Shown here piece after piece: positions 1 to 35,728 of a DNA stretch of 55,764 bases; position 1 is the stretch's first letter; each line of letters begins with the position of its first letter. Made by a program: the position numbers and the translations under genes. The notes beneath the pieces are model-generated. The model was not told the origin of the DNA and did no database searches. It was given only the letters and a program-made list of their open reading frames with translations. This DNA comes from a virus, in the IMG/VR virus record IMGVR_UViG_3300033402_000018. One strand, 5' to 3'.

Positions 1-29
1 GCACATTCAATGGCTGCTTTGGAGAAACG

Positions 30-233
30 ATGGACTGGAAAACCGAATGGACTCTTTTTAAGCGGGTCATGCTTTACTACATACGCTTGGGTTTGATCGC
101 CATCCCCTTCGGAATCATTTACGGCTTTGCGCACAGGGCACTTGGGCACCCCAGCAAACTTGCTTTGATCGTGTGTTTGGTTGGGGCGATCTTTTGCAAC
201 CAGTTAATTCAAGGTTTCCCGCCAAGGGAGTAA
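30..233 (+). CDS. small hypothetical membrane protein
   Basis: ORF of 67 aa containing two hydrophobic stretches; no recognisable motif. Confidence 0.3.
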   Translation: MDWKTEWTLFKRVMLYYIRLGLIAIPFGIIYGFAHRALGHPSKLALIVCLVGAIFCNQLIQGFPPRE

Positions 234-254
234 TAGAGTGGTGGAGGCCCCACC

Positions 255-584
255 ATGGCAAAGGCACAACTGAAGCGAACACCGTACATCACCCTGATCT
301 GCGCACCCGGAATCCCAACATCTGAACTCAAGGCGCTGAAAGCACACTGGCAAGAAGCCGAGCGCGACCCCAACTACTCCGTTGTGGTAAACTATGAATG
401 TGTCGTTTCGCTGATCGAGACACCCAAGGACACCAAGTTTGTGATCGTGGCTCCCGGCGTTCCGACAAGCGAGGTCACGGCGCTGAAGAAACAGTTTCGT
501 CAGGCGAAACGTGCGAAGAAGCAAGAAGATCGCATTGTCGTTGTAAATTACGAAGTGAGGATCGACGGTATCGGCTGGTACTGA
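255..584 (+). CDS. hypothetical protein with internal duplication
   Basis: Two copies of a ~50 aa unit (APGIPTSELKALK... / APGVPTSEVTALKK... each followed by VVNYE); ATGA overlap with next gene. Confidence 0.45.
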   Translation: MAKAQLKRTPYITLICAPGIPTSELKALKAHWQEAERDPNYSVVVNYECVVSLIETPKDTKFVIVAPGVPTSEVTALKKQFRQAKRAKKQEDRIVVVNYEVRIDGIGWY

Positions 585-856
585 TGAGAAAGTTTTTCAA
601 GAAAAAGAAATACTCGTGGGAAGGCGTTAAGCACGCGATCCCGATTGACCAAGACATCTGGGATCACACCCAGCAATACGTCAAGGATCAGATCGCGATC
701 ATGAAACGCCACGGTTCGGAGCCTGACCCGCCGCTGACTGAGGCGCAGTTCCAAGACCTCGTGTATGTGACGGCACGGTATCCGCAGCAAGTGAGAAATC
801 TTCGAAAGAAGTACGAGGCACCAGAAGATGCGACTTTGCGGGCCAACGCAGTATAA
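584..856 (+). CDS. hypothetical protein
   Basis: In-frame ATG (MRKFFKKKKYSW...) overlapping stop of upstream gene; long upstream part of ORF 398..856 overlaps the better ORF 255..584 and is trimmed. Confidence 0.4.
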   Translation: MRKFFKKKKYSWEGVKHAIPIDQDIWDHTQQYVKDQIAIMKRHGSEPDPPLTEAQFQDLVYVTARYPQQVRNLRKKYEAPEDATLRANAV

Positions 857-1457
857 CCGATTGCTTTCAGCGATCAAGTATTACGAGCAGTGCGGTTTCA
901 AATACATTGATGTGCCATGGACTGTCAGTGAAGAAGCCATGAACATTACGCGTCCGGCGTGGGCTGGTACGAATACGCTTATCTACACCGCTGGCGGCAA
1001 GCAGCATTGCCCCGTTGCTTCAGCCGAGCAATCATTTCTTCAAATGCAGTTGGACGCGCTTGATGGAAGTCTTGACAACCGAATTTCTGGCAGCTTTTGC
1101 ACACTAACACCATGCTTTCGCAATGAGCCTGTCATTGACGATCTTCACCAGCCGTATTTCATGAAGGTGGAGCTTATCAGTTGGGATAAGACAACCCGCG
1201 AAGACATGGACAAAATGATCGCTGGGGCGCGGTTATTTTTCGAAGAGCATCTTTGGATTGATTGTGTCTACAATACGGAGCCTGATCCTATCGGTGTTGT
1301 TGCCTATGATTTGGTGACCACGCACACAGGGATCGAGCTAGGGAGCTATGGCATTCGTGAGCATCCGAGAGTCGGACGCTGGGTTTACGGCACCGGATTA
1401 GCCGAACCGCGTTTTAGTCTCGCGCTTGAAAAAGAGCCGCAAAGTGAGACGGTATAA
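828..1457 (+). CDS. seryl-tRNA synthetase-like class II aminoacyl-tRNA synthetase catalytic core (minimal, no tRNA-binding arm)
   Basis: Motif-1-like GFKYIDVPWTV; motif-2-like CFRNEPVIDDLHQPYFMKVEL (compare SerRS CFRSE...HQFDKVE); motif-3-like YGTGLAEPRFSLALE (compare SerRS GSGLAVGRTLVAILE). Only 209 aa. Confidence 0.55.
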   Translation: MRLCGPTQYNRLLSAIKYYEQCGFKYIDVPWTVSEEAMNITRPAWAGTNTLIYTAGGKQHCPVASAEQSFLQMQLDALDGSLDNRISGSFCTLTPCFRNEPVIDDLHQPYFMKVELISWDKTTREDMDKMIAGARLFFEEHLWIDCVYNTEPDPIGVVAYDLVTTHTGIELGSYGIREHPRVGRWVYGTGLAEPRFSLALEKEPQSETV

Positions 1458-1479
1458 TCGACTTCTGTTTGCTTAATAT

Positions 1480-2190
1480 ATGGCTTGGTTTGACCAAATC
1501 TCGATGTCGCAAATTAGCCACAGACTGTTTGTCAGTGGTTACGCTCCTGCCGCTGAGTTGGCAAAGGAAAATCCTCATAAAATCACTGCCGTTCTCTGTG
1601 TCCATCAAGTCATGGACTACGACCAGAACCCCAACATCATCTACATGCACGTGCCATTTGACGACGGATCACCCATCCCGCCGCGTCAGTTTGTAAAGTG
1701 CCTTGGTTGGTTGAAGTTCATGTGGGAGAACGGGCACACAATTCTTGTCCATTGCGCCGCTGGCATCTCGCGATCAGTCACGATCATGGCGTCGTTCATG
1801 CACTACGAAGGCATTTGCGATTTTGAAACAGCACTTGACCGAATCCGCATGGCCCGTCCGGTCGCATCTCCTGCCGCAGCCGTATCGAACTCCGCAAAGC
1901 AGATGCTTGGCGTATATCCTTACGATGGCTCAATGGTGCCGGAGCATGAACGCACCATGCACGAACTTATCGAACGCGTGCAGAATCAACGCGCCGCACA
2001 TGCGCACCCGGATGAGAACTGCCCGATGCGCCAGTTTTTACTAGGCGATCAAGAAGACAACAGACCGCGCTACGAAATCCCATGCACCTGCGAGAAGCTG
2101 CTGAATCCAATAGAGTACGCGCAGCAGAAAGAAAAAAATATCATCGTTGTTGCTGATCCCGGCATCATACTAACAGATGACGAGGGGTGA
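1480..2190 (+). CDS. dual-specificity protein phosphatase
   Basis: Active-site HCAAGISRS (CX5R P-loop) preceded by a D-containing loop; 236 aa. Confidence 0.8.
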   Translation: MAWFDQISMSQISHRLFVSGYAPAAELAKENPHKITAVLCVHQVMDYDQNPNIIYMHVPFDDGSPIPPRQFVKCLGWLKFMWENGHTILVHCAAGISRSVTIMASFMHYEGICDFETALDRIRMARPVASPAAAVSNSAKQMLGVYPYDGSMVPEHERTMHELIERVQNQRAAHAHPDENCPMRQFLLGDQEDNRPRYEIPCTCEKLLNPIEYAQQKEKNIIVVADPGIILTDDEG

Positions 2191-2819
2191 GTATGGAGCG
2201 GGTCTTAAACGATGCCTTGGAGCTTGAAGGGATTGCCCAAGGGCACCAAGACGACATCCGTGCCTACCTCAAAATCCTGCGCAACCGGGATCAGTCAACC
2301 TACGAGCATTCCATTCGAGTAGGGATACTCGCCAGTAAGATTGCCATCTATGCCGCCAAGCCGGGGGTTAGCGCACGCATGATGCTGTGGGCTGGCTTCC
2401 TGCATGACATCGGCAAGGTGCTGGTGCCGCCCGGAGTTCTTACTAAGAAATCTCACTTTACCGCTGACGATTACGCCGCGATGGAGCCGCACGTCAAGTA
2501 CGGCTGGGACATGCTCACCGAAGTTCACGATTACACCGCACACATCCTCGTCCGGCATCACCAGTATGGCTCCAAGCCCTACCCTAAAGAACTGCCAGCG
2601 CTGCCGGAGCACCTACAGGCTCGCGCTGAAGTGGTGGACAATGCCGCACGCCTATTGGCGCTCGCGGACTACTACGATGCTCTCATGCACCGGAACAACG
2701 ACAAAAACGGTGCGAAGCCGCTATCCGGCAAAGAGAAGCGGGAAATCTACATGCGGGACAACGCCGATCAGAAAGACCTGATCGAGCTTCTTGAGTCCGT
2801 GGGTGTGCTAAAATTCTAG
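2187..2819 (+). CDS. HD-domain phosphohydrolase (HD-GYP-like)
   Basis: H...HD metal-binding motif (HSIRV...FLHDIGK) and downstream HHQYGSKPYP resembling the HHExxDGxGYP region; ATGA overlap with upstream gene. Confidence 0.65.
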   Translation: MSMERVLNDALELEGIAQGHQDDIRAYLKILRNRDQSTYEHSIRVGILASKIAIYAAKPGVSARMMLWAGFLHDIGKVLVPPGVLTKKSHFTADDYAAMEPHVKYGWDMLTEVHDYTAHILVRHHQYGSKPYPKELPALPEHLQARAEVVDNAARLLALADYYDALMHRNNDKNGAKPLSGKEKREIYMRDNADQKDLIELLESVGVLKF

Positions 2820-2826
2820 TAGACTC

Positions 2827-3384
2827 ATGAAAATCAAAGACTTAAAGCTACACGCTTTCTGGAAACGGTTTTTCCGCCGCCTTAGTAGGGGATTGGGCGT
2901 GCCGAAGAAGATTGCAGCGACAGAGGTAAAAGCACCGGGAAAATACGAAGCTGGTAAGCGGTACACCATCTTTCTCGCCGGAGCCATCGACCAAGGTAAA
3001 GCGGTGGACTGGCAGCAGAAAGTCGCCCGCGCTCTGGACGAACTGGACATTCTGATCCTGAATCCGCGCAGAGAGAATTGGGACCCAAGCTGGGATCAAT
3101 CCGCAGACAATCCTGAATTCAGGCAGCAGGTAAATTGGGAACTTGACGCACAGGCGGCCGCTGATATGGTGATTTTCGTGTTCACCAAGGACAGCAAGGC
3201 ACCGATCACGTTCTTGGAATTCGGTCTGTTCGCCCCAACCAAAGACGCCGTGGTCTGCGCTGAAGAAGGCTTCTACCGCAAGGGAAATCTTGACATCGTA
3301 GCTGAGCGCTACCACATTCCAATGTATGACAATTTGGATGAGATGATCGGTGACTTGAAGACGGTGCTTGGGGAGAAAGCATGA
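2827..3384 (+). CDS. nucleoside 2-deoxyribosyltransferase-like protein
   Basis: N-terminal YTIFLAGAIDQG Rossmann-like motif typical of the NDT/RCL family; 185 aa. Confidence 0.45.
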   Translation: MKIKDLKLHAFWKRFFRRLSRGLGVPKKIAATEVKAPGKYEAGKRYTIFLAGAIDQGKAVDWQQKVARALDELDILILNPRRENWDPSWDQSADNPEFRQQVNWELDAQAAADMVIFVFTKDSKAPITFLEFGLFAPTKDAVVCAEEGFYRKGNLDIVAERYHIPMYDNLDEMIGDLKTVLGEKA

Positions 3385-3716
3385 GCCAGACAGTTTACGT
3401 GCTAACGACCTTGATGGGGGAAAACCCGAAGCTGCCGAAAGAGTGGCGTCCTGTTGGCGTGGTAACAAGCCTCGACATCGCTGAGCAATGGGTCGCGCAC
3501 GGCGGGAACAACGATTGGATTCCGTTTGAGATTGACGATACCAGTTTGACCGGATTAAGCGACAACCCTTCAGTGTTTAAGCCCGCGCCGCCTACGCCGA
3601 ACGAAGAGAAGCTGGAAAAGGCCAACCAGCAATTGCAAGGCGTGATTCAGACGCTTCAGAAGCGACTCGAAAAGAAAAAGCCAAAGGCTTCCCTTTTGAA
3701 CAAGAAACGGAGATAA
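3381..3716 (+). CDS. hypothetical protein
   Basis: ORF of 111 aa with ATGA overlap; basic C-terminus. Confidence 0.4.
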   Translation: MSQTVYVLTTLMGENPKLPKEWRPVGVVTSLDIAEQWVAHGGNNDWIPFEIDDTSLTGLSDNPSVFKPAPPTPNEEKLEKANQQLQGVIQTLQKRLEKKKPKASLLNKKRR

Positions 3717-3722
3717 TAGGGT

Positions 3723-4046
3723 ATGGTCACATTGACACCCGGAGCGGTAAAGAAAGTCAAGGAAATCATGGAGCAGCAAGACCCGAAGCCAGCCGCACTG
3801 CGTCTTGGCGTTATTGGCGGCGGATGCTCCGGCTTTCAGTATTCTATGCAGTTCGAGAATGAGAAGGGCATGATGGACAAGTCCTTCGAGTTCGACGGTC
3901 TTACGTTGATCGTTGACGCTACATCGTACATGTATCTCGACGGCTGCGAAGTTGATTACCTTGAGACGCTCGAAGCCAGCGGCTTCAAGTTCAACAACCC
4001 GAACGTGAAAAGCACCTGTGGGTGCGGTCAGAGCTTCAACGCATGA
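3723..4046 (+). CDS. iscA: A-type Fe-S cluster carrier protein (IscA/ErpA/HesB family)
   Basis: 107 aa with conserved C at GGGCSGF and C-terminal CGCGQSF motif (three-Cys signature of IscA/ErpA). Confidence 0.85.
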   Translation: MVTLTPGAVKKVKEIMEQQDPKPAALRLGVIGGGCSGFQYSMQFENEKGMMDKSFEFDGLTLIVDATSYMYLDGCEVDYLETLEASGFKFNNPNVKSTCGCGQSFNA

Positions 4047-4219
4047 GCGAAGAGAATTTTGATTTCGCATTGGACTCATGGACTATCACGCCTGAAGAAG
4101 GCGAAAGAATTGCCCGTGATTTGCAACGACAGTATATCGAAGATCACATTAGGCAGTTCGGGGGCGTCACCCTGCTTTGCCTGCGGCCCAAGAAAGATGA
4201 AACCAATGATGGATTGTAA
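4043..4219 (+). CDS. small acidic hypothetical protein
   Basis: ATG overlapping the iscA stop (ATGA); 58 aa. Confidence 0.3.
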   Translation: MSEENFDFALDSWTITPEEGERIARDLQRQYIEDHIRQFGGVTLLCLRPKKDETNDGL

Positions 4220-4552
4220 ACCCAAGCCGAAGAGAGACGGTGGTAAGTCGGAACCGTCTTCGCGGCACGTTCCGCGACGATCCACCGAACTACGACAAGC
4301 CGATCTATGACCGTGATGGTAACCAGATCGGTGTGATTTATGATGCGCCTCCCGCGCCGGGGCCGAGCGGATTATCATGATTTGTTGCTCAATTTGTAAA
4401 GAAATGGTCGTATCTAGTGTTGAAGACCTCCGTTTGAGCGAAACGTTGGTCAGGATACAAGACCACTACAAGACGCATTCTTGGCTGCGACGTAAGCTTC
4501 ACAGGCTACAAACGTTGCCAGCGACATTGCGGCTGAAGAGATTTCAAAAAAC

Positions 4553-4969
4553 ATGTACTCTGAAAAAGTAATCGACCACTACAACAACCCGCGTAATGTT
4601 GGCTCGCTGGACAAAGCATCGCCAGACGTGGGGACAGGTCTGGTTGGTGCGCCGGAGTGCGGCGACGTAATGAAGCTTCAGATCAAGGTGGAAAACAATG
4701 TCATTGTTGACGCTAAGTTCAAAACTTTTGGCTGCGGCAGTGCTATTGCTTCTAGCTCGCTCGCGACTGAATGGGTTAAAGGCAAGACAACTGATGAAGC
4801 CCTCGCCATTAAAAACACCGAGATCGTCAAAGAACTCGCCCTCCCACCTGTAAAGATTCACTGTTCAGTGCTCGCCGAAGACGCGATTCGCGCCGCGATT
4901 GCTGACTGGAAAAAGAAGCAAGATGCCGAAAAAGCCAAAGAAGAAAAAGCCCATCACGAAGCGCGATAA
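4553..4969 (+). CDS. iscU: Fe-S cluster assembly scaffold protein IscU/NifU-like
   Basis: MYSEKVIDHYNNPRNVGSL, GAPECGDVMKL, FKTFGCGSAIASSS, LPPVKIHCSVLAEDAI: three conserved Cys plus LPPVK motif. Confidence 0.9.
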   Translation: MYSEKVIDHYNNPRNVGSLDKASPDVGTGLVGAPECGDVMKLQIKVENNVIVDAKFKTFGCGSAIASSSLATEWVKGKTTDEALAIKNTEIVKELALPPVKIHCSVLAEDAIRAAIADWKKKQDAEKAKEEKAHHEAR

Positions 4970-5116
4970 CTTCGACCGCAACTACATGCGCCACATTGTG
5001 GAAGAAGAGGAAGAAACGCTGTTCAAACTTCTGCAAGAAGACAAGCCCACCAAATCCTAATTTCTCCAGTATTAAAGCCTTTAGTAGGCGGTATTCCGCC
5101 TTCGAAAGGAACGACT

Positions 5117-5503
5117 ATGTACAAAAGACCCGAAAGAAAGCATAAACCGAACACAGAAAAGTGCCCGTTCTGCGACAAAGATTTCAAACCAATTGATCCG
5201 TGGCGCGAATCACAATGCGTGCTCAACAAGCCGCTCTGGATGGTGATCCCACCCGGCGGCGTCCATCTCGAATGCCCGGTTCACCCCGAGGGACATCATG
5301 TCTTCGGCAGCCCGGTCATCTACATGGATTCTCCTATCCGTGTTCGTGAGAACAACTTACCTGACCCGTTAAACGCGCCGTGGTGCGAGTACGACCGCAC
5401 GAAGTATTCAGGCGGCTGCACCTACGATCACGATTCCAGCAAGGATTTGACGTTCGATTCCACCAAACCCTTCGGAACCACGACAGGCTCGAATTGGCGG
5501 TAA
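5117..5503 (+). CDS. hypothetical protein
   Basis: 128 aa ORF, Cys/His-containing N-terminus (CPFCDK). Confidence 0.4.
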   Translation: MYKRPERKHKPNTEKCPFCDKDFKPIDPWRESQCVLNKPLWMVIPPGGVHLECPVHPEGHHVFGSPVIYMDSPIRVRENNLPDPLNAPWCEYDRTKYSGGCTYDHDSSKDLTFDSTKPFGTTTGSNWR

Positions 5504-5524
5504 TCTAGGAAAATTTGGTATTAG

Positions 5525-6106
5525 GTGGGCATGAGTCAATATGATCGTGTCTACCTAGACCAATGCTACGCACTCGCCAAGAACAGCACATGTGTGAAGG
5601 CCAAAGTTGGCGCTCAAGTGCGCGGACCCTACGGCGACATGTCTGACCACCTGCTAGGTCAAGGTTTTAACCAATCCCCCAATCCTGAGTTTGCTGACTG
5701 CGGCAAGCTGTGCGCCGGGGGCATCCGCTGCGGCATTAAGTCCGGTACTCGCGCTGAACTCTGTTACGCCGTCCACGCGGAGCAATACGCACTACTTCAG
5801 GCCGGATCGCTCGCGAAAGGGGCCACGATCTATGTCGCTTCCTACGATGACAAAGGCGAGAAACGCCTGAAGAACGCTGAACTCCCGCTGGGGCACCCGA
5901 TGCACGGTTTCTACTGTTCGGTGTGTGCTAGGCTCATCTGGGCTGCGGGAATCGCACGTGTAGTGACGGACGGTGTAAAGGGCCCGGTTGTTCTCAGCCT
6001 GAATGACATCTGGAAGACCTCTTACGGCGTGGCGGACAGTATTGACAAGAAGTACAAATCCTGCGGTTGCGAAGTAGGCAATTGCATCTGTGATATTGAG
6101 ACCTAA
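5525..6106 (+). CDS. cytidine/deoxycytidylate deaminase-fold zinc-binding protein
   Basis: CYAVHAEQYALLQAG (H-A-E zinc/catalytic motif) and downstream YCSVCARLI (PCxxC motif). Confidence 0.55.
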   Translation: MGMSQYDRVYLDQCYALAKNSTCVKAKVGAQVRGPYGDMSDHLLGQGFNQSPNPEFADCGKLCAGGIRCGIKSGTRAELCYAVHAEQYALLQAGSLAKGATIYVASYDDKGEKRLKNAELPLGHPMHGFYCSVCARLIWAAGIARVVTDGVKGPVVLSLNDIWKTSYGVADSIDKKYKSCGCEVGNCICDIET

Positions 6107-6639
6107 TGTCAAACCTCGCTGAACTCAAAGACCTGCCCAAAGAGCGGAAGAAGTATGTCGTTGGCTTCTTGATTGATCCCACGTTGTCTAAGGTGGTGCT
6201 CGTGCGTAAGAACCGACCTGACTATCAACGCGGTCTGCTCAACGGCGTGGGCGGGAAAGTCGGAGACACGATCCTAGACGAAACCACGGAAGAGGCGATG
6301 GCCCGTGAGTTCCAAGAAGAGACGGGTGGGGTTGATCTCAACTGGCGGCGGTTCTTGCACATGATGACACCCCGGTCAGACCTGACATTTTTCTACGCCA
6401 TCGGCAATGTTCACTGTGTCCGAACACAGACCGACGAAGAAGTAGCGGTGTATGACATTTCCGATGTGATGGATCGCTGCGATACGATGCCCAATGTTCG
6501 CTGGTGCATTCAGATGGCACGCTCTATTGAGTTCGGTGAGCACGCGGATTACTTTGAAGTGGCTGAGATTTTGGAGACAGACTTACCAGCGAATTTTCAT
6601 TTCATCCCGGATGCAGCGCTTGAAAAAGAAGACCTATGA
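6106..6639 (+). CDS. NUDIX hydrolase
   Basis: Nudix box GGKVGDTILDETTEEAMAREFQEETG (GX5EX7REUXEEXGU). Confidence 0.8.
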   Translation: MSNLAELKDLPKERKKYVVGFLIDPTLSKVVLVRKNRPDYQRGLLNGVGGKVGDTILDETTEEAMAREFQEETGGVDLNWRRFLHMMTPRSDLTFFYAIGNVHCVRTQTDEEVAVYDISDVMDRCDTMPNVRWCIQMARSIEFGEHADYFEVAEILETDLPANFHFIPDAALEKEDL

Positions 6640-7574
6640 ACATTGAATCGAAACTGATACTTGCCAGCAAGAGCGAAGCAACAGGCATCACCCTTTACAC
6701 GTTTGTGCTCACGTACCCACGTGTCATCCTAGCTGAAGTAAACACGCATCGAATGCTCAGCCGCAACACCGCGTCATCTCGCGCTATTCCAGCCAAGAAA
6801 CAGCGGGAACGCGTGCTTACTGATCCGTTCGTGCCTGTCACAATTGGGGCGAATCAGAAAGGGATGCAGGCTGGTGAAGAGCTTGACGGCTGGCGTCGGT
6901 TTGTTGCGATCAACACGTGGAAACTTGCACGCTACCCAATGGTAGCGGCGTCGTGGGTACTCGACAAGGTTGGTGCGCACAAGCAAGTTGTGAACCGCAT
7001 TGTGGAGCCGTGGACGTTCACGCAGCAAGTTGTGACTTGCACCGACCTGAAGAATGTCTTCAAACTGCGCAACCACAAAGATGCAGAGCCACACTTTCAA
7101 ATCATCGCGAAACAGATGCAGATGCAAGCAGAGTGGGCCGAGAAATGGTTTAACACCCTTTCGTGGAACTCGGAGAACGCGCTTGACCGTAGATTAGAAA
7201 TCAACAACCAACTTGGTGTTGGTACTCTTCAGGTGCTAAAGCCGGGGGAGTGGCACATGCCGTTTGTTGATGAGAAGGACATCACAGACACAATCCTGAA
7301 CTCCATGCTGCATGACAGCACTGACGAATCCCTGAAGAAAATCAGCACAGCACGCTGCGCACGTGTCAGCTACTTTCTACCGGAGAGCGGCAAAAGGTCT
7401 GACCCTAAGCGTGACGTAGAGCTTTGCAATAAACTGTCCGGCTCCGGTCATTGGAGTCCGTTCGAGCACGTAGCCACGCCGACAAAAGAAGCGGATTACA
7501 TTGGCAATTTTAAGGGCTGGAAGCAGTATCGTAAAGAGTATCCGCAAGAGTCTGGAGGGGACCGTGGGAATTGA
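6636..7574 (+). CDS. thyX: flavin-dependent thymidylate synthase ThyX-like
   Basis: HRMLSRNTASSRA matches the ThyX RHRxxSxxxxSxR signature; size 312 aa. Confidence 0.6.
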   Translation: MNIESKLILASKSEATGITLYTFVLTYPRVILAEVNTHRMLSRNTASSRAIPAKKQRERVLTDPFVPVTIGANQKGMQAGEELDGWRRFVAINTWKLARYPMVAASWVLDKVGAHKQVVNRIVEPWTFTQQVVTCTDLKNVFKLRNHKDAEPHFQIIAKQMQMQAEWAEKWFNTLSWNSENALDRRLEINNQLGVGTLQVLKPGEWHMPFVDEKDITDTILNSMLHDSTDESLKKISTARCARVSYFLPESGKRSDPKRDVELCNKLSGSGHWSPFEHVATPTKEADYIGNFKGWKQYRKEYPQESGGDRGN

Positions 7575-7608
7575 AGGCTGGGGCAGATCATTTGGGGCGA
7601 TTCAAGCG

Positions 7609-8094
7609 ATGGAGAAACGCCTTGCGAAGCAGCGCGAGTGGGACATCTACTACCTGAACATGGCCCGTTACGTCTCCACGAAGTCGAAGGACCCAAGCAC
7701 GCAAACCGGAGCGTGCATCGTGCGCCCGGACAACTCTTTGTGTTCCATTGGCTTCAACGGCTTCCCCAAAGGCATGAATGACGCCCCGGAGCTTTACGCC
7801 AACCGTGATGTAAAGTATTCTCGCACAGTGCATTGCGAAGTCAATGCCGAAATCTTCACCAGAGAAGACCTGAAGGGGTTTACGCTTTACACGTGGCCTT
7901 TCTCATCTTGCGACCGTTGCGCGGTGACGATGATTCAGGCGGGAATTGCACGTTTTGTGTTTCCAACCATGCCGCCAGAGAAGGCGTCCCGTTGGGCTGA
8001 AAACATGGCGATAGCGCAAGGCTACATGCGGGAAGCTGGGCGGGAAGTGGTTGAGATACCGTATGAACAGATTCCCAAGGTTGTGCTAGAATAA
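7609..8094 (+). CDS. dCMP deaminase (ComEB-like)
   Basis: HCEVNAE and SCDRCAVTMIQAGI motifs (HAE / PCxxC); start placed at first ATG after upstream stop (alternative GTG ~7563). Confidence 0.7.
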   Translation: MEKRLAKQREWDIYYLNMARYVSTKSKDPSTQTGACIVRPDNSLCSIGFNGFPKGMNDAPELYANRDVKYSRTVHCEVNAEIFTREDLKGFTLYTWPFSSCDRCAVTMIQAGIARFVFPTMPPEKASRWAENMAIAQGYMREAGREVVEIPYEQIPKVVLE

Positions 8095-8099
8095 ACGAT

Positions 8100-9131
8100 A
8101 TGGCTAAAAAACAGGTTCGAACAACGCGTAAGGAAGATAAGCCGAGACCGTACAAGGTCGATTATTTCGAAGAGAACGAAATGATCGACAACGACAAGGC
8201 GTTGGTCCGTAGCCGTGTCGTCCGCGCCGTTACGTCTGCGCAGGCGTCCAATCTTGTGATGCTCGAAGATGGGTGGGAATCGCGTAACCGATTTATTGTT
8301 CGTGCGTCTCGCTTTTATGGGGAGTTGAAACAAGCGCAGGAAAACAAGTACGTCCCCGTTGAAGACCTGTTCCCTGAAAAGAAGGCACTCGATGTCATGG
8401 CGAACATCGAGGTTATCCGCGCCGCCGCTAAATCCCGTACAGCCGCTCCCGTAGCGCCAGCCACTCCAGTTGCATCAAGCAACACGTGCCGCTGGCATGG
8501 CGATCAGTACCTTGATGCTTCAGGTCGTTGCACGCGTCTTGACCCATCCTTCATGTCTGCGGTGTGCGCTCCGTCTGTGCCTACGTCGGGGCCGGACAGT
8601 CAGGCAACCAAGGATGTCATGGCGGATTTCAATGGCATGATGTCTCATGACGAGCACGAACAGAGAATGGACAACTTCGTGCCGGACATCACGCCGGGAC
8701 TAAGAACTTCACAGTACCAAGCCGCAACGGGAAACAAGACTCCAATCGTTCGGACAGCGGACGGGCAACTTGGTGTGCTTACTCCGAGCCTTTCGTTCCC
8801 CGACAAGCCAGTGGTGCCTACACAGCCAGCCGTGTTTGACGGTGACGAGCACCACATTGATCTGGACGAGTGCGCACCAGTGATTCATCCCGCGCCGGAC
8901 GCGGGCTGTTCATGTGAGCCGCACGGCGAGACTGATCCAAGCTGTGTGGAACACGGCATTACAGCGCCGCCGATTGACACAACGGGTCAGGTGCTCACAT
9001 CTATGGGTACTTCGGCTCCATGGCAAACCCCGGACGACCCGCTCCCTACGTGGGCGAAGGTGCTCCTATTCGGGGGTGCGGCATTCTTCGCAGTGGTGAT
9101 AGCACTCGCAGTCCTGAAGTGTGGACATTAA
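8100..9131 (+). CDS. hypothetical membrane-anchored protein (Ala/Pro/Thr-rich, C-terminal TM helix)
   Basis: 343 aa; C-terminal LLFGGAAFFAVVIALAVL hydrophobic helix. Confidence 0.5.
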   Translation: MAKKQVRTTRKEDKPRPYKVDYFEENEMIDNDKALVRSRVVRAVTSAQASNLVMLEDGWESRNRFIVRASRFYGELKQAQENKYVPVEDLFPEKKALDVMANIEVIRAAAKSRTAAPVAPATPVASSNTCRWHGDQYLDASGRCTRLDPSFMSAVCAPSVPTSGPDSQATKDVMADFNGMMSHDEHEQRMDNFVPDITPGLRTSQYQAATGNKTPIVRTADGQLGVLTPSLSFPDKPVVPTQPAVFDGDEHHIDLDECAPVIHPAPDAGCSCEPHGETDPSCVEHGITAPPIDTTGQVLTSMGTSAPWQTPDDPLPTWAKVLLFGGAAFFAVVIALAVLKCGH

Positions 9132-9219
9132 ACAAGTGGGTCAATGACCACTTGTTCGAGTTGGTAATTGCGTTGTTGGTTTTGCCCGTGGTTATTGCGT
9201 ATCTTTTCGGTCATCACTG

Positions 9220-9426
9220 ATGGAACAGCACTACTGCCAACGAATCCCAAAGCCGGGGCCAAACACGCTTTCTCTGACCTCCATAGAAGGCGACCCGGAC
9301 GCCTGTGGTAAGATCGCGCACTTCAAATACAGACCAGAGGACCCATACGATGTCTTTGAGCCGGACAAAGTTTGGTGGTTGTGTGCGGAGTGCTATGATT
9401 TTGCCATGATCTTCGACAAATTCTAA
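9220..9426 (+). CDS. hypothetical protein
   Basis: 68 aa ORF, CxxC motif. Confidence 0.35.
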   Translation: MEQHYCQRIPKPGPNTLSLTSIEGDPDACGKIAHFKYRPEDPYDVFEPDKVWWLCAECYDFAMIFDKF

Positions 9427-9460
9427 ATTTCTAAGATTCTAGCCCTCTTGTAGAGGGCAA

Positions 9461-10027
9461 ATGGTTTATTTCATCATCGAAGCATCGCATCTTTTCCGCG
9501 CCGGGACAAAGTATCAGACCCAGTTTTTCGTGATGGATGTTGTGAATTTCATCCATCGCAAGTTCAGGGGTTTCTGCTCCGGCTGCCCAGAGCCTTGCCC
9601 GGAAATGGTGCCACATGTGATTGTTCTTCACGGCTCTGTTAAGCAGGAACAGGGCGACCGCTATGCCGCCGCGCTCGAACGCCACGGCGTGAAGGTTGTG
9701 CGTATGCGCCCGATTGAGTCGGACAGCGCAGGCAAATGGTTTTTCAAGCCAGCTTGGTACATGCACAAAATGATGGGGACGGACATCCCTGAAGGCTCTG
9801 ATGTTGTTCTGGTGGGGTTTCACAATATCCGCTACCTAAAGTTCCTCGAAAAGTATGCCACTCGATACAACCTGCATGTGGCCGCCTTTCAAACGCCAAG
9901 CGCCAAGCAAGGGATGATGCACGTTCCTGATGAGTTTAAGCCATTACTCAAAAGCGTAATTGACCTTGACATGGATGTCCCCGGCATCAAAGCAGAGTTC
10001 AAGAAAAAGCTCAGTAATAAAGCTTGA
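9461..10027 (+). CDS. hypothetical protein
   Basis: 188 aa ORF following a hairpin; no clear motif. Confidence 0.5.
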   Translation: MVYFIIEASHLFRAGTKYQTQFFVMDVVNFIHRKFRGFCSGCPEPCPEMVPHVIVLHGSVKQEQGDRYAAALERHGVKVVRMRPIESDSAGKWFFKPAWYMHKMMGTDIPEGSDVVLVGFHNIRYLKFLEKYATRYNLHVAAFQTPSAKQGMMHVPDEFKPLLKSVIDLDMDVPGIKAEFKKKLSNKA

Positions 10028-10130
10028 GCGGTTCACGGGCCTAAAGCTTCGTTGGTTAGCACCCCCCGATCTTATGTTCGCTCGCCAGAAGACCGGGAGA
10101 AGATGCAACCCGTGGACCGTCAAGGACTCA

Positions 10131-10515
10131 ATGAACGCTAACGAATACCAGACGCTCGCTGAAGTTACCGAGAGCAAAGATTTTGAAGCAATCGGTAAAC
10201 GCATGTCAACCATCCGTAGCATCCGTCTTCTCCACGCGACAACTTGGCATTTCCAGCGAATGCGGTGAAGTCGCTGACGCACTCAAGAAGCATATCTTCT
10301 ACGGCAAGGAACTGGACGTAGTAAACGTTGCCGAAGAGATCGGCGATATTTGCTGGTATCTGGCGCTCGCTTGCAATGAGCTTGGTATGGCATTCGAGCA
10401 GGACATCTTGGAAGTCAACATCGCCAAGCTGAAGGCCCGTTACGGGGACAAGTTCTCCGAGCACGCGGCCATGCACCGTGACCTCAACAAGGAACGTGCT
10501 ATACTCGAAGGATGA
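10131..10515 (+). pseudogene. mazG: MazG-like nucleoside triphosphate pyrophosphohydrolase interrupted by an apparent +1 frameshift (~10240-10250)
   Basis: Frame 0 encodes MNANEYQTLAEV...IRLLHA (then stop); frame +1 continues LGISSECGEVADALKK...EEIGDICWYLALA...KLKARYGDKF. Fused, this reproduces the MazG RLLHAALGLAGEAGE / EELGDLLW motifs. AAGGA RBS before 10131. Confidence 0.6.
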
Positions 10516-11255: not shown

Positions 11256-11846
11256 TTGCCCATGCCTCGTTACATCGACATTGACCAAGAGCGTTTGTCC
11301 CACCTTCATGAGGGTTTAGAGCTTCTGGAGATGGTTGACCGTGAAGCAATCGCGGGACTGGACTTGTGCGTTTACGGGATCACCAACAACGCGTCCATTC
11401 TTGATTCCGCTAAAGAAGCCATCGCTGATTCTGAAGAAGTAGCGGAGCAGGACGTAGCCCTTACTGAGATTGCTGTAGCCATTCCGATCTCGTCTGACAC
11501 TATCTACGCGCTGAACGGTTCCGGCATTCGCCTCAGCCGCGAGGATTTTGCATACATGGGTTCCGGTGGTGAAGGTGTCCGCACCATGACTTTCGCTTTC
11601 GCTCACTTCAAATCGACAGTGACCCTGAATTCATTTTCCAAGCTCGCAATTGCTTCGTCTGATTCGTGGCTGGATGATTTCTTGCGTAAGGAAGGCTCCG
11701 GGCAGCAAGCGAAGGTCACTCCCGCTGTTCACCGCACCGAAGAAGCCACAGTTCCCGGCGCTCCCCCGGCACCAGAAATTCCGAAACGTACATCCGTTAT
11801 GGGTGGGCCCCGTCTGGCGTCCTTGATTGACGAATTTCTTGCATGA
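11256..11846 (+). CDS. hypothetical protein
   Basis: 196 aa acidic ORF. Confidence 0.5.
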   Translation: MPMPRYIDIDQERLSHLHEGLELLEMVDREAIAGLDLCVYGITNNASILDSAKEAIADSEEVAEQDVALTEIAVAIPISSDTIYALNGSGIRLSREDFAYMGSGGEGVRTMTFAFAHFKSTVTLNSFSKLAIASSDSWLDDFLRKEGSGQQAKVTPAVHRTEEATVPGAPPAPEIPKRTSVMGGPRLASLIDEFLA

Positions 11847-12298
11847 AACTAACGCGGCAACAGCGTGAGCAACTCCGCATGAAGTTTGGCGGGAAGTGTG
11901 CCTACTGCGGCTGCGATCTTCCTGAAAAAGGCTGGCACGCCGATCATGTTGAGCCTGTCTACCGTGAGTGGTGGAAAAGCACCAAATGGTGGAAAGAAGC
12001 GCACGGCACCAAGTGGTCGGTCAACGAAGCTGGTAACCTTGAGCAACACGCTGTCCCGCTGGAGAAACCGGGGTTCGAGCGCCCGGAAAATGACACACTG
12101 GAGAACCTGTTCCCGTCCTGTGTTCCCTGCAATCTGGACAAGCACGCGAGTCCCTTGGAAGTATGGCGGCAGCAGCTTGAAGGTCGCGTTGATGTATGTC
12201 GTAGAAACTATTCTGCATTCCGCCACGCCGAACGTTTCGGTTTAGTGCAGCAAATCCACAAACCTGTGGTATTCTGGTTTGAGCAATACTCCGGCTAG
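11843..12298 (+). CDS. HNH endonuclease
   Basis: CAYCGCDL...HADHVEPV...NLFPSCVPCNLDK (HNH with zinc-binding Cys pairs); ATGA overlap. Confidence 0.75.
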   Translation: MKLTRQQREQLRMKFGGKCAYCGCDLPEKGWHADHVEPVYREWWKSTKWWKEAHGTKWSVNEAGNLEQHAVPLEKPGFERPENDTLENLFPSCVPCNLDKHASPLEVWRQQLEGRVDVCRRNYSAFRHAERFGLVQQIHKPVVFWFEQYSG

Positions 12299-12351: not shown

Positions 12352-13185
12352 ATGGCGAACAAACCCAGAACCGACTCGCTGGGTGACAGAATGAAGCGCT
12401 ACGAAGCAACCACGCGCTTCCTGTTGCCGCGCCGCACTTACACAATTCTTCGCGTTGATGGTCGTGCGTTCCACACGTGGACTCGCGGGCTTGACCGTCC
12501 CTATGACCGCAACTTCATGGCGTGCATGAACGAAGCCGCGCTCGAACTTTGCCAGCAGATCGCGGGAGCGCAGTTCGCTTACGTGCAGTCCGACGAAATC
12601 AGCCTGTTGGCTGTGGACTTCCTTGACATCAAAACCGAGCCGTGGTTTGAAGGCGGCGTGCAGAAATGGGCCAGCGTCGGCGCATCCATCGCAACGATGG
12701 CGTTCAACAATTGCTTGCTTCGGCTGAAGGGGGCAAACCTCGACGAGTCTGAGCTTAAGATCACCAAGAAGCTCCCGAACGCCACGTTCGACGCCCGCGT
12801 GTTCACCATCCCAGACTTGGTGGAAGTGGAAAATTATTTCGTGTGGCGGCAGCAGGATGCGGAACGCAACTCCGTCACAATGCTGGCGCAGAGCTACGCT
12901 TCCCACAAGCAACTCATGGGGAAAAATCGCGCCGCGCAGCATGAGATCATCCACAAAGCCGGGGACAATTGGGCGAAGCATCCTGTGCGTTTCAAGCATG
13001 GCGCTGTGATCCGCCGTGCCGCTGAAAACGAAGTCTGGACGGAAGTCGGCACCCATCATTTCAACTGGGTTGTGGACGAAGACACCCCAGCCTTCACCAA
13101 AGACCGCGCTTACATCCGTGGTCTGGTTCCTGTTGTTTGGGACAACGACCTTCTGGTCAGAAAGGCGGCAGCGAATGGAGAATAG
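12352..13185 (+). CDS. tRNA(His) guanylyltransferase Thg1-like protein (TLP)
   Basis: DRMKRYE, TILRVDGRAFHTWTRGL, FAYVQSDEISLL match the conserved Thg1 N-terminal palm-domain motifs. Confidence 0.7.
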   Translation: MANKPRTDSLGDRMKRYEATTRFLLPRRTYTILRVDGRAFHTWTRGLDRPYDRNFMACMNEAALELCQQIAGAQFAYVQSDEISLLAVDFLDIKTEPWFEGGVQKWASVGASIATMAFNNCLLRLKGANLDESELKITKKLPNATFDARVFTIPDLVEVENYFVWRQQDAERNSVTMLAQSYASHKQLMGKNRAAQHEIIHKAGDNWAKHPVRFKHGAVIRRAAENEVWTEVGTHHFNWVVDEDTPAFTKDRAYIRGLVPVVWDNDLLVRKAAANGE

Positions 13186-15830: not shown

Positions 15831-16373
15831 ATGGCGCAGGACGTTAATTTCAAGAAAACCGCAGCAACAGAGACGCAGTACAACACAGGCGCACAGCGGG
15901 ACAATCGAGTAGGTAAAGGGGCGTTTCACTGGATGCCGTGGGACGCCCTGTTTTGTGTCTCCCGCATCTATGAGCTTGGCAACAAAGGCCGGAGCAAAAC
16001 CGGAGACGGCAACGACCGTAATTGGGAAAACGGGATGCCGCTCATTGACCTGTTGCAGAGCGCGATCAATCACATCTCAGCCCACATCTCAGGCGACCGC
16101 AGCGAGCCGCACATCTCACAGGCAATCTGGAACCTATTGAACTACCTTCAGACTTCGATCTGGGTTATCCTAGGGTTCCGCCCCAAGGAACTCAACAAGC
16201 TGCCAGACCATCGCCATGCTTGGAAGCCGGGGGATGAGCCGCCATGCCCGTTGTCACCACAAGAGATTGAGTGGTTACAGTTCAAGGGTGTGATCCCAAA
16301 AGAGCCAGAGTTGCATGATTGCGGGCCTGAACCAGCCGTTCTTAAGGTGGTATTGCCCGGATCGGAACGCTGA
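15831..16373 (+). CDS. hypothetical protein
   Basis: 180 aa ORF. Confidence 0.5.
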   Translation: MAQDVNFKKTAATETQYNTGAQRDNRVGKGAFHWMPWDALFCVSRIYELGNKGRSKTGDGNDRNWENGMPLIDLLQSAINHISAHISGDRSEPHISQAIWNLLNYLQTSIWVILGFRPKELNKLPDHRHAWKPGDEPPCPLSPQEIEWLQFKGVIPKEPELHDCGPEPAVLKVVLPGSER

Positions 16374-25444: not shown

Positions 25445-26113
25445 ATGTCCAAACTGAGCGATGCACTCAAACACATTCCCGGCGCAAGCGCCATTGTTGA
25501 TTTTGACGAAGATACGAAGCCAGCGCCAGTCCCAACCAAGCCCGTTTCAGAGCACCCGGCGTTCAACTTGACCCCCGGAGCTTTCAGCGCCGCACCAGCG
25601 GTCCCAGCATCCGGCTCGCCGTTCGCGGTTCCAAGCACCGTGGTGATTGACGAAGGCGTGTACCAGAGCATTCTGAAAAAGACCAACTTTGACGCGACGT
25701 CGGTCGGTCAGACGATCCACAAGTATTACGATGCCCTCGAAGGCACCGGGATGGACCCGAACGCACGGTTCAAAGCAGCATTGAAACAAGCCGCCGCGCT
25801 GGATCACATTGCACCTGACCAAGTTCTTGCGACATTCGATCAGTTGACCGCCGCGCTGGAGAAAGACGCGCAGGGATTCGCCGGAGTTGCTTCGAGCGTG
25901 GAAGCCAAGGAAATCACTGCACGCCAGCAGAAGTTGCAGGACATCGCACAGCAAATCGCGCAGCTTCAACAGCAACAGACACAGGTTCAGGGTGAGCTTG
26001 TTGACGCGCAGACCACGCACGCCAACGCGACCGCCCAATACAACATGGCAAAGCAGCGCCGGGAGCAGGAAATCACCGCTCAGAAGGCGCAGTTCGCGGC
26101 CCTGTTGAAATAA
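25445..26113 (+). CDS. hypothetical protein with Q-rich C-terminal coiled coil
   Basis: AGGAG-like RBS (gtaggagca) before the ATG; C-terminal QQKLQDIAQQIAQLQQQQTQVQ. Confidence 0.5.
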   Translation: MSKLSDALKHIPGASAIVDFDEDTKPAPVPTKPVSEHPAFNLTPGAFSAAPAVPASGSPFAVPSTVVIDEGVYQSILKKTNFDATSVGQTIHKYYDALEGTGMDPNARFKAALKQAAALDHIAPDQVLATFDQLTAALEKDAQGFAGVASSVEAKEITARQQKLQDIAQQIAQLQQQQTQVQGELVDAQTTHANATAQYNMAKQRREQEITAQKAQFAALLK

Positions 26114-26139
26114 CGAGCTTGCCGCTCGTAGCTTAATGC

Positions 26140-26167
26140 GTGGCAAACCGTGCGCACGGTTTGCCAC
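26140..26167. repeat. 28-bp perfect palindrome
   Basis: GTGGCAAACCGTGCGCACGGTTTGCCAC; not followed by a T-run. Confidence 0.7.
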
Positions 26168-26344
26168 ACGGAAAAGAGTCCCTCTTTAAGTGGGAAAGAT
26201 GTTCTCGGACTTCGCAAGGGGCACCGAGTATCCGGGCACGGATAGGTTCAAATCCAACCGGGCGGCATTGATTTCAGTAGTCAAGCAGGTAGGTTTCGCG
26301 GTATACTTTCGCGGTATACTCGCGAAGAAAAGGAAAACGACTCT

Positions 26345-27436
26345 ATGAGCACCACACCTTCACCACTCGCCAACTTCAATCCGAAGTCGTTCTGGAAAAA
26401 GCCGGAAGGCGTTCCCGGAATGATCCTGATGGGTCTGTTACTCGGACTAGGGGGCTGGGGACTGTACATCGCACTCCCCTTTATTATCACCCTGCTGACC
26501 AACGTCATCTACACCGCCGCGCTCGTCGGCGTCATCGCTGCTCTGGCGTACATCGTCATGAACGGGACCGTTCAAACGCTCGCCAAGAACATTTTCCAGT
26601 CCATCTGCCGGGGCATCGCCACTTGCTATACCACGATTGATCCCATCGGCATCCTGAAGAACCAGCTTGACGACATGAAGAAGGCAAAGCGTGAACTGGA
26701 TGACACCATTCAGCGTTTCGCTGGCTCTGACAACAGCCTTCGCACCAACATCGCCAAGAAGCAGCAGGAGATCGCGCAGTTGAAGGCGCAGTCACAGGCG
26801 GCTGACCGTATGTTGGCGAGCAAGTCCGATCCATTGGAGCGGGAACGCATCAAGCTGCAAGGCGAAACGTATCTGGAGAAAGCTGGATTGCTGATGCAAG
26901 CAGTTGCGCAGCTTCAGGCTCTTGAAGATCAGACCGCCGACATGCTTGGCAAGTTCCGTCACTGGAGTCAGGTATCCGACGCCAAGATTGACCGCACCGC
27001 GATGCGCGTTGAAATCTTCGCCGAACAGCGCAAGATGATTTTGGACGCCAAGAAGACGCTCAGCGTCGGCCTCCGCTTGCTCAAGGGCGATGACGAACAG
27101 TTGAAGCTGGTGGACGGCGCTATCGAATTCCTCACGGAAGACGCAGCCCGCACGCTTGGTGAAATCCAAGAGTTCAACCGCTTCTCTGACAAGATGTTGA
27201 CCGACATCGACATCAGCAACAGCGCCAACGCTGAAATGGCACGCGCCAAGTTCGCCGAAATGGGAACGAAGCTCGAAGCCAGCGCTAACCGTCCGTCCGC
27301 CGTAGATCAGTTGCAGGCGGCGATGAACGGCGCTGGGCCGATCAGCATCCCATCGTCTCCGGTTGTGGGACGCGGGACAGCGGCGAGCGGTGGTCAGTCA
27401 GACAACACGGACTACAGCAGCCTGTTCAACAAATAA
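26345..27436 (+). CDS. membrane protein with two N-terminal TM helices and extended coiled-coil domain
   Basis: 363 aa; hydrophobic segments MILMGLLLGLGGWGLYIALPFIITLL and AALVGVIAALAYIV followed by heptad-rich region. Confidence 0.5.
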   Translation: MSTTPSPLANFNPKSFWKKPEGVPGMILMGLLLGLGGWGLYIALPFIITLLTNVIYTAALVGVIAALAYIVMNGTVQTLAKNIFQSICRGIATCYTTIDPIGILKNQLDDMKKAKRELDDTIQRFAGSDNSLRTNIAKKQQEIAQLKAQSQAADRMLASKSDPLERERIKLQGETYLEKAGLLMQAVAQLQALEDQTADMLGKFRHWSQVSDAKIDRTAMRVEIFAEQRKMILDAKKTLSVGLRLLKGDDEQLKLVDGAIEFLTEDAARTLGEIQEFNRFSDKMLTDIDISNSANAEMARAKFAEMGTKLEASANRPSAVDQLQAAMNGAGPISIPSSPVVGRGTAASGGQSDNTDYSSLFNK

Positions 27437-29405: not shown

Positions 29406-29621
29406 ATGAGACCGAAACCAGCAGACGTTGAATTGAAGATCGCTGAGAGTGTCGGCTGGTACATTGACGTAACTAACGAAGAGAAGTGGCTGGTGCGTGA
29501 CGGCGGCGTGAATCAATGGGTCGGCCCCGGCGCAGCTACGGACGCGGAACTGAAATTGTGGGTTCTGCTGCTGACCAAGATTGTGACGAAAGAAGCCAAG
29601 GAATTTTTGGAGAGCCTGTAA
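29406..29621 (+). CDS. hypothetical protein
   Basis: 71 aa ORF after terminator. Confidence 0.35.
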   Translation: MRPKPADVELKIAESVGWYIDVTNEEKWLVRDGGVNQWVGPGAATDAELKLWVLLLTKIVTKEAKEFLESL

Positions 29622-30406
29622 TGAGTGAGTTCATTTCCGCTTACACACCGAACAAACCCACCAAGGTATCCACGGTCAAGATGCTGATCGCTAGCTATGC
29701 CGCGTTCTTCTTCGTGTTCTGGTTCTTCTCGCCGTTCCCGTTCCTGCCTTCAATCGGTGAAACATGGGCAGCGTGGGTTGAGCAGTGGGGGCAAGGCTTA
29801 GGCGGGGAACTCATTACTAGCTTCGAAGCCAACTTGCAAGCTATCGCTCTTTCTTCTCTCATCTCGCTGGGACTTGCCTATTTGACAGTGCTCGCCGGAT
29901 TCCGTCCAATCGTCACGTTCCTGTCCAAGCTACGCTTCCTTTCAATGGTCGGCTTGAGCTTTTTCTTCACGGTTGCCACGAAGACACAGCACCAACTCAA
30001 GATCAGCTTGTTGGTGTTCAGCATCAGTGTGTTCTTCGTGACCGGGATGGCTGACGTGATCGAGTCAATTCCGAAAGAACAGTATGATCTTGCACGCACG
30101 CTGCGCATGGGGCCGTGGCGCACCGTCTGGGAAGTAGTAGTGCTGGGTCAAATTGACAAGGCGTTTGATGTGCTGCGCCAGAACGCCGCCATCGGATGGA
30201 TGATGCTTACGATGATTGAAAGCATGGTTCGTTCCGAAGGCGGCATTGGCGCTATGCTCACCACCGCGAACAAACACTTTTACCTTAACGCAGTCTTTGC
30301 CATCCAGATCACCATTCTGTTGATGGGGTTGGGGCAGGACTACTTGATCGGCGCATCGAAGAAGCTCTTCTGTCCGTATGCCGCGCTGGGATCGGAGCGC
30401 AAGTGA
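29621..30406 (+). CDS. ABC transporter permease (NitT/TauT-type binding-protein-dependent inner-membrane component)
   Basis: Six hydrophobic segments; EAA-like loop KEQYDLARTLRMGPWRTVWEVVVLG; TAATG overlap start. Confidence 0.75.
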   Translation: MSEFISAYTPNKPTKVSTVKMLIASYAAFFFVFWFFSPFPFLPSIGETWAAWVEQWGQGLGGELITSFEANLQAIALSSLISLGLAYLTVLAGFRPIVTFLSKLRFLSMVGLSFFFTVATKTQHQLKISLLVFSISVFFVTGMADVIESIPKEQYDLARTLRMGPWRTVWEVVVLGQIDKAFDVLRQNAAIGWMMLTMIESMVRSEGGIGAMLTTANKHFYLNAVFAIQITILLMGLGQDYLIGASKKLFCPYAALGSERK

Positions 30407-35638: not shown

Positions 35639-35728
35639 GGTGAGTTGGGAGAGTGGTTGATTCCGCTGGTTTGCTAAACCAGAGCACCCGAAAGGGTGCC
35701 ACAGGTTCGAATCCTGTACTCACCGCCA
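35639..35728 (+). tRNA. tRNA-Ser (anticodon GCU)
   Basis: Manual fold: acceptor GGTGAGT/ACTCACC, 3-bp D stem, anticodon stem CTGGT/ACCAG with loop TTGCTAA, long variable hairpin, T arm ACAGG-TTCGAAT-CCTGT, discriminator G, encoded CCA. Confidence 0.75.

Follow-up and report, generated by a model that had tools for sequence, protein, structure and literature searches.

The analysed DNA, hereafter the window, is a viral sequence of 55,764 nucleotides (nt; IMG/VR virus record IMGVR_UViG_3300033402_000018), and one of its genes encodes a class II aminoacyl-tRNA synthetase (aaRS) core that derives from bacterial-type seryl-tRNA synthetase (SerRS). The protein, here called mini-SerRS, has 209 amino acids (aa), and its family is essentially restricted to phages, mostly large ones. 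Mini-SerRS and a second protein of about 80 aa are near-obligately paired or fused. This partner is probably an all-alpha nucleoside triphosphate (NTP) pyrophosphohydrolase of the MazG/phosphoribosyl-ATP pyrophosphohydrolase (PRA-PH) type, judging from its conserved residues, and it is the most informative feature of the locus: because the two proteins nearly always occur together, mini-SerRS is to be seen as one half of a two-protein enzyme and not as an oddity linked to tRNA. The pair may form a phage-specific, two-component seryl-adenylate ligase, in which the seryl group would be passed to a nucleotide-type acceptor. We put this forward tentatively, at a little under an even chance.

SerRS-derived core and its adenylate site

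Homologues of mini-SerRS number 1264 in a 90%-identity protein collection, nearly all of them having 190–240 aa, and 1595 clusters (50% identity) match at E <= 1e-3 when 1.84 billion cluster representatives are searched with a profile. The gene is present in 276 GenBank phage records (tblastn), and with this spread the open reading frame (ORF) is beyond chance. Carriers include rV5-like phages of Escherichia, phages of Acinetobacter, Caulobacter, Brevundimonas, Pectobacterium, Cronobacter and Microcystis, and huge metagenomic phages. Cellular homologues are limited to 18 matches among 185,579 species genomes, every one on contigs of metagenome-assembled genomes (MAGs), and the family is regarded as phage-restricted for this reason. 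The window gene (P0001) was called by JGI from a TTG start 11 codons further downstream; the ATG start is favoured here because residues 4–12 are kept among homologues.

Searches with the single sequence are nearly blind to the family, so that profile and structure comparisons are required for its placement. The single-sequence Pfam scan gives sub-threshold class II matches only, the NCBIfam scan gives serS at E = 0.19 (TIGR00414, 10.7 bits against a cut-off of 301.65 bits), and phmmer against the PDB finds nothing meaningful. When a profile built from 43 homologues is compared with all PDB sequences, the 19 best matches are all SerRS (best E = 1.6e-6), and hhalign aligns it to E. coli SerRS with a probability of 91.7% across SerRS residues 167–343. 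The AlphaFold model of mini-SerRS (predicted local distance difference test, pLDDT, 94.5; predicted template modelling score, pTM, 0.90) matches SerRS and PylRS at E~1e-9 in Foldseek.

A first-pass annotation, made from the sequence alone, had described a minimal SerRS-like class II core with motifs 1–3 and without the N-terminal coiled coil, and profile, hhalign and Foldseek agree with this description. All three motif strings cited in it are located in the 209-aa protein (residues 23–33, 96–116, and 187–201). The arginines of motifs 2 and 3, R98 and R195, are present and 99–100% conserved, the protein starts at about residue 167 of E. coli SerRS, and no coiled coil is seen in the model. Placement with BirA/LplA or AsnA was looked for and was not the outcome; with neither this placement nor a loss of the arginines found, the derivation from SerRS is upheld.

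Database names tell a different story. In PHROGs, mini-SerRS falls into phrog_4806 (E = 5e-40), which is labelled 'histidyl tRNA synthetase', and in GenBank its relatives are named 'hypothetical', 'histidyl tRNA synthetase' or 'seryl-tRNA synthetase'. The histidyl label is also found on RefSeq records, e.g., NC_019406, NC_048046-48, and NC_049494. It looks like a propagated mis-annotation and is unsupported, because profile and structure comparisons put the family with SerRS. HisRS/HisZ was considered as the nearest relative and rejected, SerRS being closest by both sequence and structure.

Conservation was determined in 330 distinct family members aligned to the family hidden Markov model (HMM), and the corresponding residues of E. 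coli SerRS were taken from hhalign, HMMER and local alignment (Table 1). S65, E67, F111, K113, E115, E170, G172, and S173 are conserved in 100% of the members, and C96, R98, T189, P194, and R195 in 99–100%. In motif 2, R98 and E100 are equivalent to R268 and E270 of E. coli SerRS, and F111, K113, and E115 to F287, K289, and E291; in motif 3, T189 is equivalent to S391 and R195 to R397. Motif 1 is the expected dimer-interface element of class II enzymes. In SerRS-adenylate structures of T. thermophilus, the aligned positions bind the ATP phosphates, adenine, metal ions and the amino and hydroxyl groups of serine, and E355-I-S-S358 of the E. coli enzyme is the metal and phosphate site. Since the adenylate-site residues of SerRS are 99–100% conserved, mini-SerRS is predicted to form seryl-adenylate, and the pattern points to a catalytically competent enzyme.

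Table 1. Coordinates of the mini-SerRS gene, its motifs, the partner gene and other features; positions are those of the window unless contig L086 is named.
Feature	Position	Strand	Basis or remark
Mini-SerRS gene, class II aaRS catalytic core of phrog_4806	828..1457	+	ORF translation (209 aa from ATG) and PHROGs
Motif 1, GFKYIDVPWTV (residues 23–33)	894..926	+	P30 96% and W31 93% conserved; aligns with E. coli SerRS 188–198
S65-A66-E67, counterpart of the SerRS 'TxE' loop (E. coli T237-A238-E239)	1020..1028	+	hhalign and HMMER, several SerRS chains
Motif 2, CFRNE...FMKVEL (residues 96–116; R98, E100, F111, K113, E115)	1113..1175	+	
E170-L-G-S173, counterpart of SerRS E355-I-S-S358	1335..1346	+	Aligned by hand, with the flanking YDL strand and motif 3 as anchors
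Motif 3, YGTGLAEPRFSLALE (residues 187–201; T189, R195)	1386..1430	+	Local alignment to E. coli SerRS 390–410, GSGLAVGR
Partner gene, 87 aa, starts MSIDMANEFGYHTVEITKG...	L086 4395-4658 (window position 1 = L086 5083)		Partner HMM, E = 3e-31
HNH endonuclease gene adjoining the Thg1-like gene	11843-12298		
Thg1-like gene (tRNA-His guanylyltransferase family, 3'-5' polymerase)	12352-13185		Pfam, E = 1.9e-26
Five tRNA genes: Ser(gct), Ser(cga), Ser(gga), Ser(tga), Leu(taa)	35639-36311		

Mini-SerRS has lost the elements by which SerRS recognises tRNA. In SerRS, the coiled coil reads the variable arm of the tRNA, and the motif-2 loop touches the acceptor stem. Mini-SerRS is without the N-terminal 166 residues of E. 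coli SerRS, which include the whole coiled-coil tRNA arm, and its motif-2 loop is 6 residues shorter and has no arginine. In addition, it has a deletion of 17 residues before motif 3 and ends in a C-terminal tail that is shorter by 19 residues. Selection of tRNA by SerRS depends on the long variable arm (PMC7373986). Net charge and isoelectric point are uninformative as a hint of RNA binding by mini-SerRS, because E. coli SerRS is just as acidic. Compared with SerRSs of the bacterial/eukaryal type (E. coli SerS, T. thermophilus 1SER, P. horikoshii 2DQ0), which have about 430 aa, the phage protein thus shares class II core motifs 1–3 and the signature residues of the adenylate site, but it falls short of the coiled-coil arm and of the TIGR00414 cut-off, and has a MazG/PRA-PH-like partner.

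Partner protein and its linkage to the core

The neighbourhood of mini-SerRS was studied in loci from IMG/VR (78), other phages and metagenomes (6) and MAGs (18), in which all neighbouring ORFs were clustered. A protein of about 80 aa joined the similarity component of mini-SerRS via fusion proteins. Searches with an HMM of this partner find it on the same strand and within 1.4 kb of mini-SerRS in 83 of the 84 phage loci, and it adjoins mini-SerRS in 15 of the 18 MAG loci. Mostly, fewer than 30 nt separate the two genes; the partner gene lies on either side of the core gene or overlaps it. Fusions, with the core first and the partner second, are present in at least 11 independent representatives of 50%-identity clusters (P0130, P0154, P0200, P0211, P0219, P0223, P0229, P0241, P0243, P0245, and P0247), and also in locus L070. 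With one partner query, tblastn finds the partner in 208 phage records, the genus counts being almost identical to those of mini-SerRS; the shortfall is made up of Acinetobacter and Microcystis phages, which have more divergent partners. Apart from the pair itself, no gene recurs as a conserved neighbour, the most frequent one being present in 8 of 83 loci.

Inside the window, the HMM search of all six frames finds no partner. In the clade to which the window belongs, the partner is located 500–1400 nt upstream of the core, and the JGI contig L086, which is 99.96% identical to window positions 1–10237, reaches 5082 nt further upstream and carries the gene. Relative to the window start, the gene lies 425–688 nt upstream, and the window boundary splits the module. 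The partner was missed by the first-pass annotation because the gene sits just outside the sequence that was available to it.

The partner corresponds to phrog_6408, a PHROG without function label, and has the consensus M(G)YH..I.KG..GE.SKI.EE..EL.DA..Q.......ELSDL.GAIE.Y........DL..MS..TKRAF..G.R. in which Y3, H4, G14, K18, E21, E22, E25, E41, L42, D44, F74, and R79 are invariant among 28 diverse members. The signature EExxE...ExxD, by which all-alpha NTP pyrophosphohydrolases bind metal, is intact, with E21, E22, E25, E41, and D44 all invariant. Pfam PRA-PH is matched by 23 of the 28 members at E <= 0.1 (best E = 2.5e-4; best scores 21.8–22.0 bits, with a gathering cut-off of 21.3 bits), and MazG by 3 of the 28. 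Some partners are called PRA-PH by JGI, and one gene of an Acinetobacter phage is annotated as MazG-like. The partner profile gives weak matches in the PDB to 1VMG and 2A7W (E = 0.2–0.7), and hhalign of the partner against single HisI and MazG sequences of E. coli is not significant. In the model of the fusion P0130 (pLDDT 94.8, pTM 0.87), the partner consists of a confidently placed, extended segment of 17 residues that bears the GYH, followed by three helices.

MazG/PRA-PH (HisE) enzymes, including phage MazG and MazZ, are like the partner in their size of about 80–100 aa, their helices and the EExxE...ExxD signature. The partner differs from them in its invariant, family-specific (G)YH at the N-terminus and F..G.R at the C-terminus, and in never being found apart from mini-SerRS in the examined loci. 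Several partners have additional N- or C-terminal domains of 70–140 aa (L001, L015, L034, L050, L059, L073, L002, and L108), for example in rV5-like phages and in the Acinetobacter phages DP45 and Phab24, and one partner has a Cys-rich segment; these extra domains have no Pfam match. PADLOC, searched for defence systems, gives no match for core, partner or fusion.

The nature of the partner bears on two other explanations of the module. In the first, mini-SerRS would be a non-catalytic, HisZ-like regulator or scaffold that binds an amino acid and regulates its partner. Such a role would fit the histidyl label of phrog_4806 and the resemblance of the partner to HisE/PRA-PH, but the near-complete conservation of the motif-2 and motif-3 arginines and of the other adenylate-site residues is unexpected for a non-catalytic paralogue, and no HisG-like gene is conserved nearby. 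We consider this role very improbable.

In the second, the pair would be an amino-acid:carrier-protein ligase, which would load serine from Ser-AMP onto a small carrier protein, at its phosphopantetheine, in the making of a phage-encoded secondary product. The first-pass annotation had noted a likeness to the SerRS-derived ligases of this kind, and a truncated SerRS-like core without tRNA-binding domain, together with a partner of about carrier-protein size, would agree with it. The known enzymes (Bll0957 type, PDB 3MEY), of about 300 aa, have their origin in the methanogen-type SerRS, which depends on zinc, and their genes lie beside those of carrier proteins, whereas the phage family is nearer to the bacterial type, about 100 aa smaller, without the zinc ligand set or a carrier protein, and coupled to a pyrophosphohydrolase-like partner. 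The only invariant cysteine of the mini-SerRS family is that of PCFR, hence the Cys/Glu/Cys zinc site of methanogen-type SerRS and of the ligases is absent. In the partner's 'ELSDL', several members have Ala or Cys where others have the serine, and a residue that varies in this way does not serve for the attachment of phosphopantetheine. The conserved residues of the partner form an acidic metal motif instead, and genes for PP-binding proteins or PPTases are not conserved nearby. The proposed likeness thus fails in ancestry, zinc site and carrier protein, and this is the least probable of the explanations considered here.

Possible substrates and reactions of the pair

A link between mini-SerRS and the tRNA-Ser genes of the same element had been suggested in the first-pass annotation, where the gene was said to lie next to tRNA genes for serine only. 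The tRNA cluster is located 34 kb away, and it contains a tRNA-Leu(taa) gene besides the four tRNA-Ser genes (86–90 nt each). More generally, just 22 of 104 loci have tRNA genes within 10 kb of the module, without enrichment of tRNA-Ser. In the complete genome (93.6 kb) of Acinetobacter phage Phab24, the pair is found at 25892-26632 and 26625-27155, and the sole tRNA is tRNA-Arg(tct). With so few tRNA genes nearby, and with only tRNA-Arg in Phab24, the module is independent of phage-encoded tRNA-Ser, and it may use the tRNA-Ser of the host. As for the four tRNA-Ser isoacceptors of the window, one idea is that they counter a host toxin directed at tRNA-Ser, such as MenT3.

In the ligase reaction that we propose for the pair, the core would bind ATP together with L-serine (or a small hydroxy-amino acid much like it), make seryl-AMP and release pyrophosphate. 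The partner would join the second half-reaction, or handle a triphosphate substrate or product, by cleaving or holding the triphosphate. Candidate acceptors would be the ribose of an NTP or nucleoside monophosphate that mimics A76, or the terminal nucleotide of an RNA. Canonical delivery of the seryl group to tRNA-Ser is unlikely, because the tRNA arm is lost, the motif-2 loop is short and the partner is of pyrophosphohydrolase type. A wider claim, that the module represents a new phage-restricted class of enzymes using aminoacyl-adenylate chemistry on a nucleotide-type acceptor, with a seryl-nucleotide, a serylated RNA or DNA end or an Ap4N-type compound as product and with large phages of many lineages using it to change the nucleotide, RNA or signalling state of the host, is more doubtful.

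Several points weigh against transfer to a nucleotide. We know of no aaRS paralogue for which the acceptor is a free nucleotide. The family assignment of the partner is marginal, with Pfam scores at threshold and hhalign against HisIE and MazG not significant, and the specificity for serine rests on aligned residues whose roles are taken from the structures of T. thermophilus SerRS. Many carrier phages encode tRNAs, and the presence of tRNA-Ser in rV5 (one) and the window (four) favours an RNA or tRNA substrate. The rV5 genome has six tRNAs, tRNA-Ser among them (PMC3606486). An RNA or tRNA substrate is favoured also by the Caulobacter phages, in which the core is fused to the nucleic-acid-binding C-terminal domain (CTD) of the RNA polymerase (RNAP) alpha subunit. 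For example, gp133 of CcrColossus (L003 5737-6591) has an N-terminal RNAP alpha-CTD on the core (Pfam, 27.3 bits with a cut-off of 23.8 bits), its partner is the separate gp132 directly upstream, and gp133 is located within a glycosyltransferase cluster beside lysis genes. The fusion is a hint of a polynucleotide substrate.

An RNA substrate is also central to a rival explanation, that of a true minimal SerRS, in which tRNA-Ser of the host or phage is charged either by the pair or by a heterodimer of mini-SerRS with host SerRS, the arm of the latter bringing in the tRNA from the other side of the dimer. This would boost or protect the supply of Ser-tRNA during infection, for example in the face of tRNA-Ser toxins or serine starvation, and the partner could also lower (p)ppGpp. 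Such charging would be in line with the conservation of every adenylate-site residue of SerRS, with the tRNA-Ser genes of the window and rV5, with the occurrence of the gene in large, tRNA-rich phages, and with the CCA-adding/nucleotidyltransferase genes found a few kb away in rV5-like and Acinetobacter phages. SerRS binds tRNA across its dimer, which makes a heterodimer with the host enzyme mechanically conceivable. The toxin MenT3 is reported to act against tRNA-Ser 3' ends (PMC11541572). The shortened motif-2 loop without Arg, the lack of tRNA gene enrichment near the module and the Phab24 genome, which has the module and only tRNA-Arg, stand against such charging. Deletion of the arm from E. 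coli SerRS leaves activation intact but abolishes most of the aminoacylation. In mini-SerRS this arm is absent, although SerRS identity needs the long variable arm (PMC7373986), and ordinary charging has no use for a partner that resembles NTP pyrophosphohydrolases and is almost always present, often as a fusion. Overall, a minimal SerRS appears rather unlikely.

The triphosphate chemistry suggested by the partner could also be turned to another use. If an NTP held by the partner attacked Ser-AMP, the module would be a dinucleoside-polyphosphate or adenylyl-transfer enzyme producing Ap4N alarmones or RNA caps, and serine would be recycled as a cofactor. Ap4A synthesis is a side reaction of class II aaRSs, SerRS included. 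The triphosphate/Mg-binding motif is intact in the partner, and the 1:1 fusion of core and partner in at least 11 cluster representatives would suit a reaction of this type. This explanation is nevertheless pure inference, there being no precedent for a dedicated enzyme of such design; MazG-type sites usually hydrolyse NTPs and do not present them, and Ap4A-related genes are not conserved nearby. We regard it as improbable, though ahead of the HisZ-like and carrier-protein roles. Acceptors beyond those listed take up what probability remains.

Other genes of the window and meaning of the family

Among the further genes named in the first-pass annotation, the Thg1-like gene is real and has an HNH endonuclease gene beside it (Table 1). 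A PTH2 gene was not located by regular-expression and PDB searches. For the nucleotidyltransferase, the only candidate is an ORF at 52726-53562 with a pol-beta-like GS...DxD motif, which no database match supports.

The 3' side of mini-SerRS is occupied by dual-specificity phosphatase, HD-domain and nucleoside 2-deoxyribosyltransferase-like genes, followed by IscA/IscU-like Fe-S genes (1480-3384, 3723-4969). Their order is kept in the related huge-phage contigs L004–L006 and L086 and not in other phage groups; the phosphatase, HD and deoxyribosyltransferase genes were thus rejected as conserved neighbours, being syntenic within the clade of the window only. Nucleotide metabolism is represented by a block at 5525-8094, in which two dCMP/cytidine deaminase-like genes lie at 5525-6106 and at 7501-8094, with a NUDIX gene at 6106-6639 and a divergent ThyX-like one at 6636-7574 as the other members. 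The N-terminal domain of a dATP/dGTP diphosphohydrolase (PF18909, E = 6.6e-8) is encoded at 15831-16373; this domain is associated with MazZ enzymes of 2-aminoadenine phages. The window also encodes an OmpA-domain protein (27507-29327), an ABC-type permease-like protein slightly under the Pfam cut-off (29516-30406), an ABC ATPase (31598-32497) and, at 50013-52460, an 815-aa protein with major-vault-protein domains (MVP_shoulder, E = 3e-26; Vault_3, E = 5.5e-11), which is unusual in a phage.

Truncated aaRS paralogues have repeatedly been found to catalyse reactions that were not expected of them, such as EF-P lysylation, queuosine glutamylation and the loading of carrier proteins. GluQRS (YadB) and PoxA/EpmA are such paralogues with non-canonical acceptors, but they derive from class I GluRS and class IIb LysRS, respectively, and neither has a MazG-like partner. 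Mini-SerRS is an aaRS paralogue with a new obligate partner. Full-text searches of the literature found no characterisation of the mini-SerRS family or of its pairing with the partner. Mini-SerRS needs new database labels, and annotation should treat both genes as one module.

Hardly any natural class II core with a complete adenylate site is smaller than mini-SerRS. Its family is abundant and sharply defined, and the pair is testable with two purified proteins. Should charging of tRNA-Ser prove to be all that mini-SerRS does, no known functional synthetase would be more reduced. If the module acts instead by forming a seryl-nucleotide or by modifying an RNA end, this would mean a kind of phage-host biochemistry, and a branch of aaRS evolution, not seen before.

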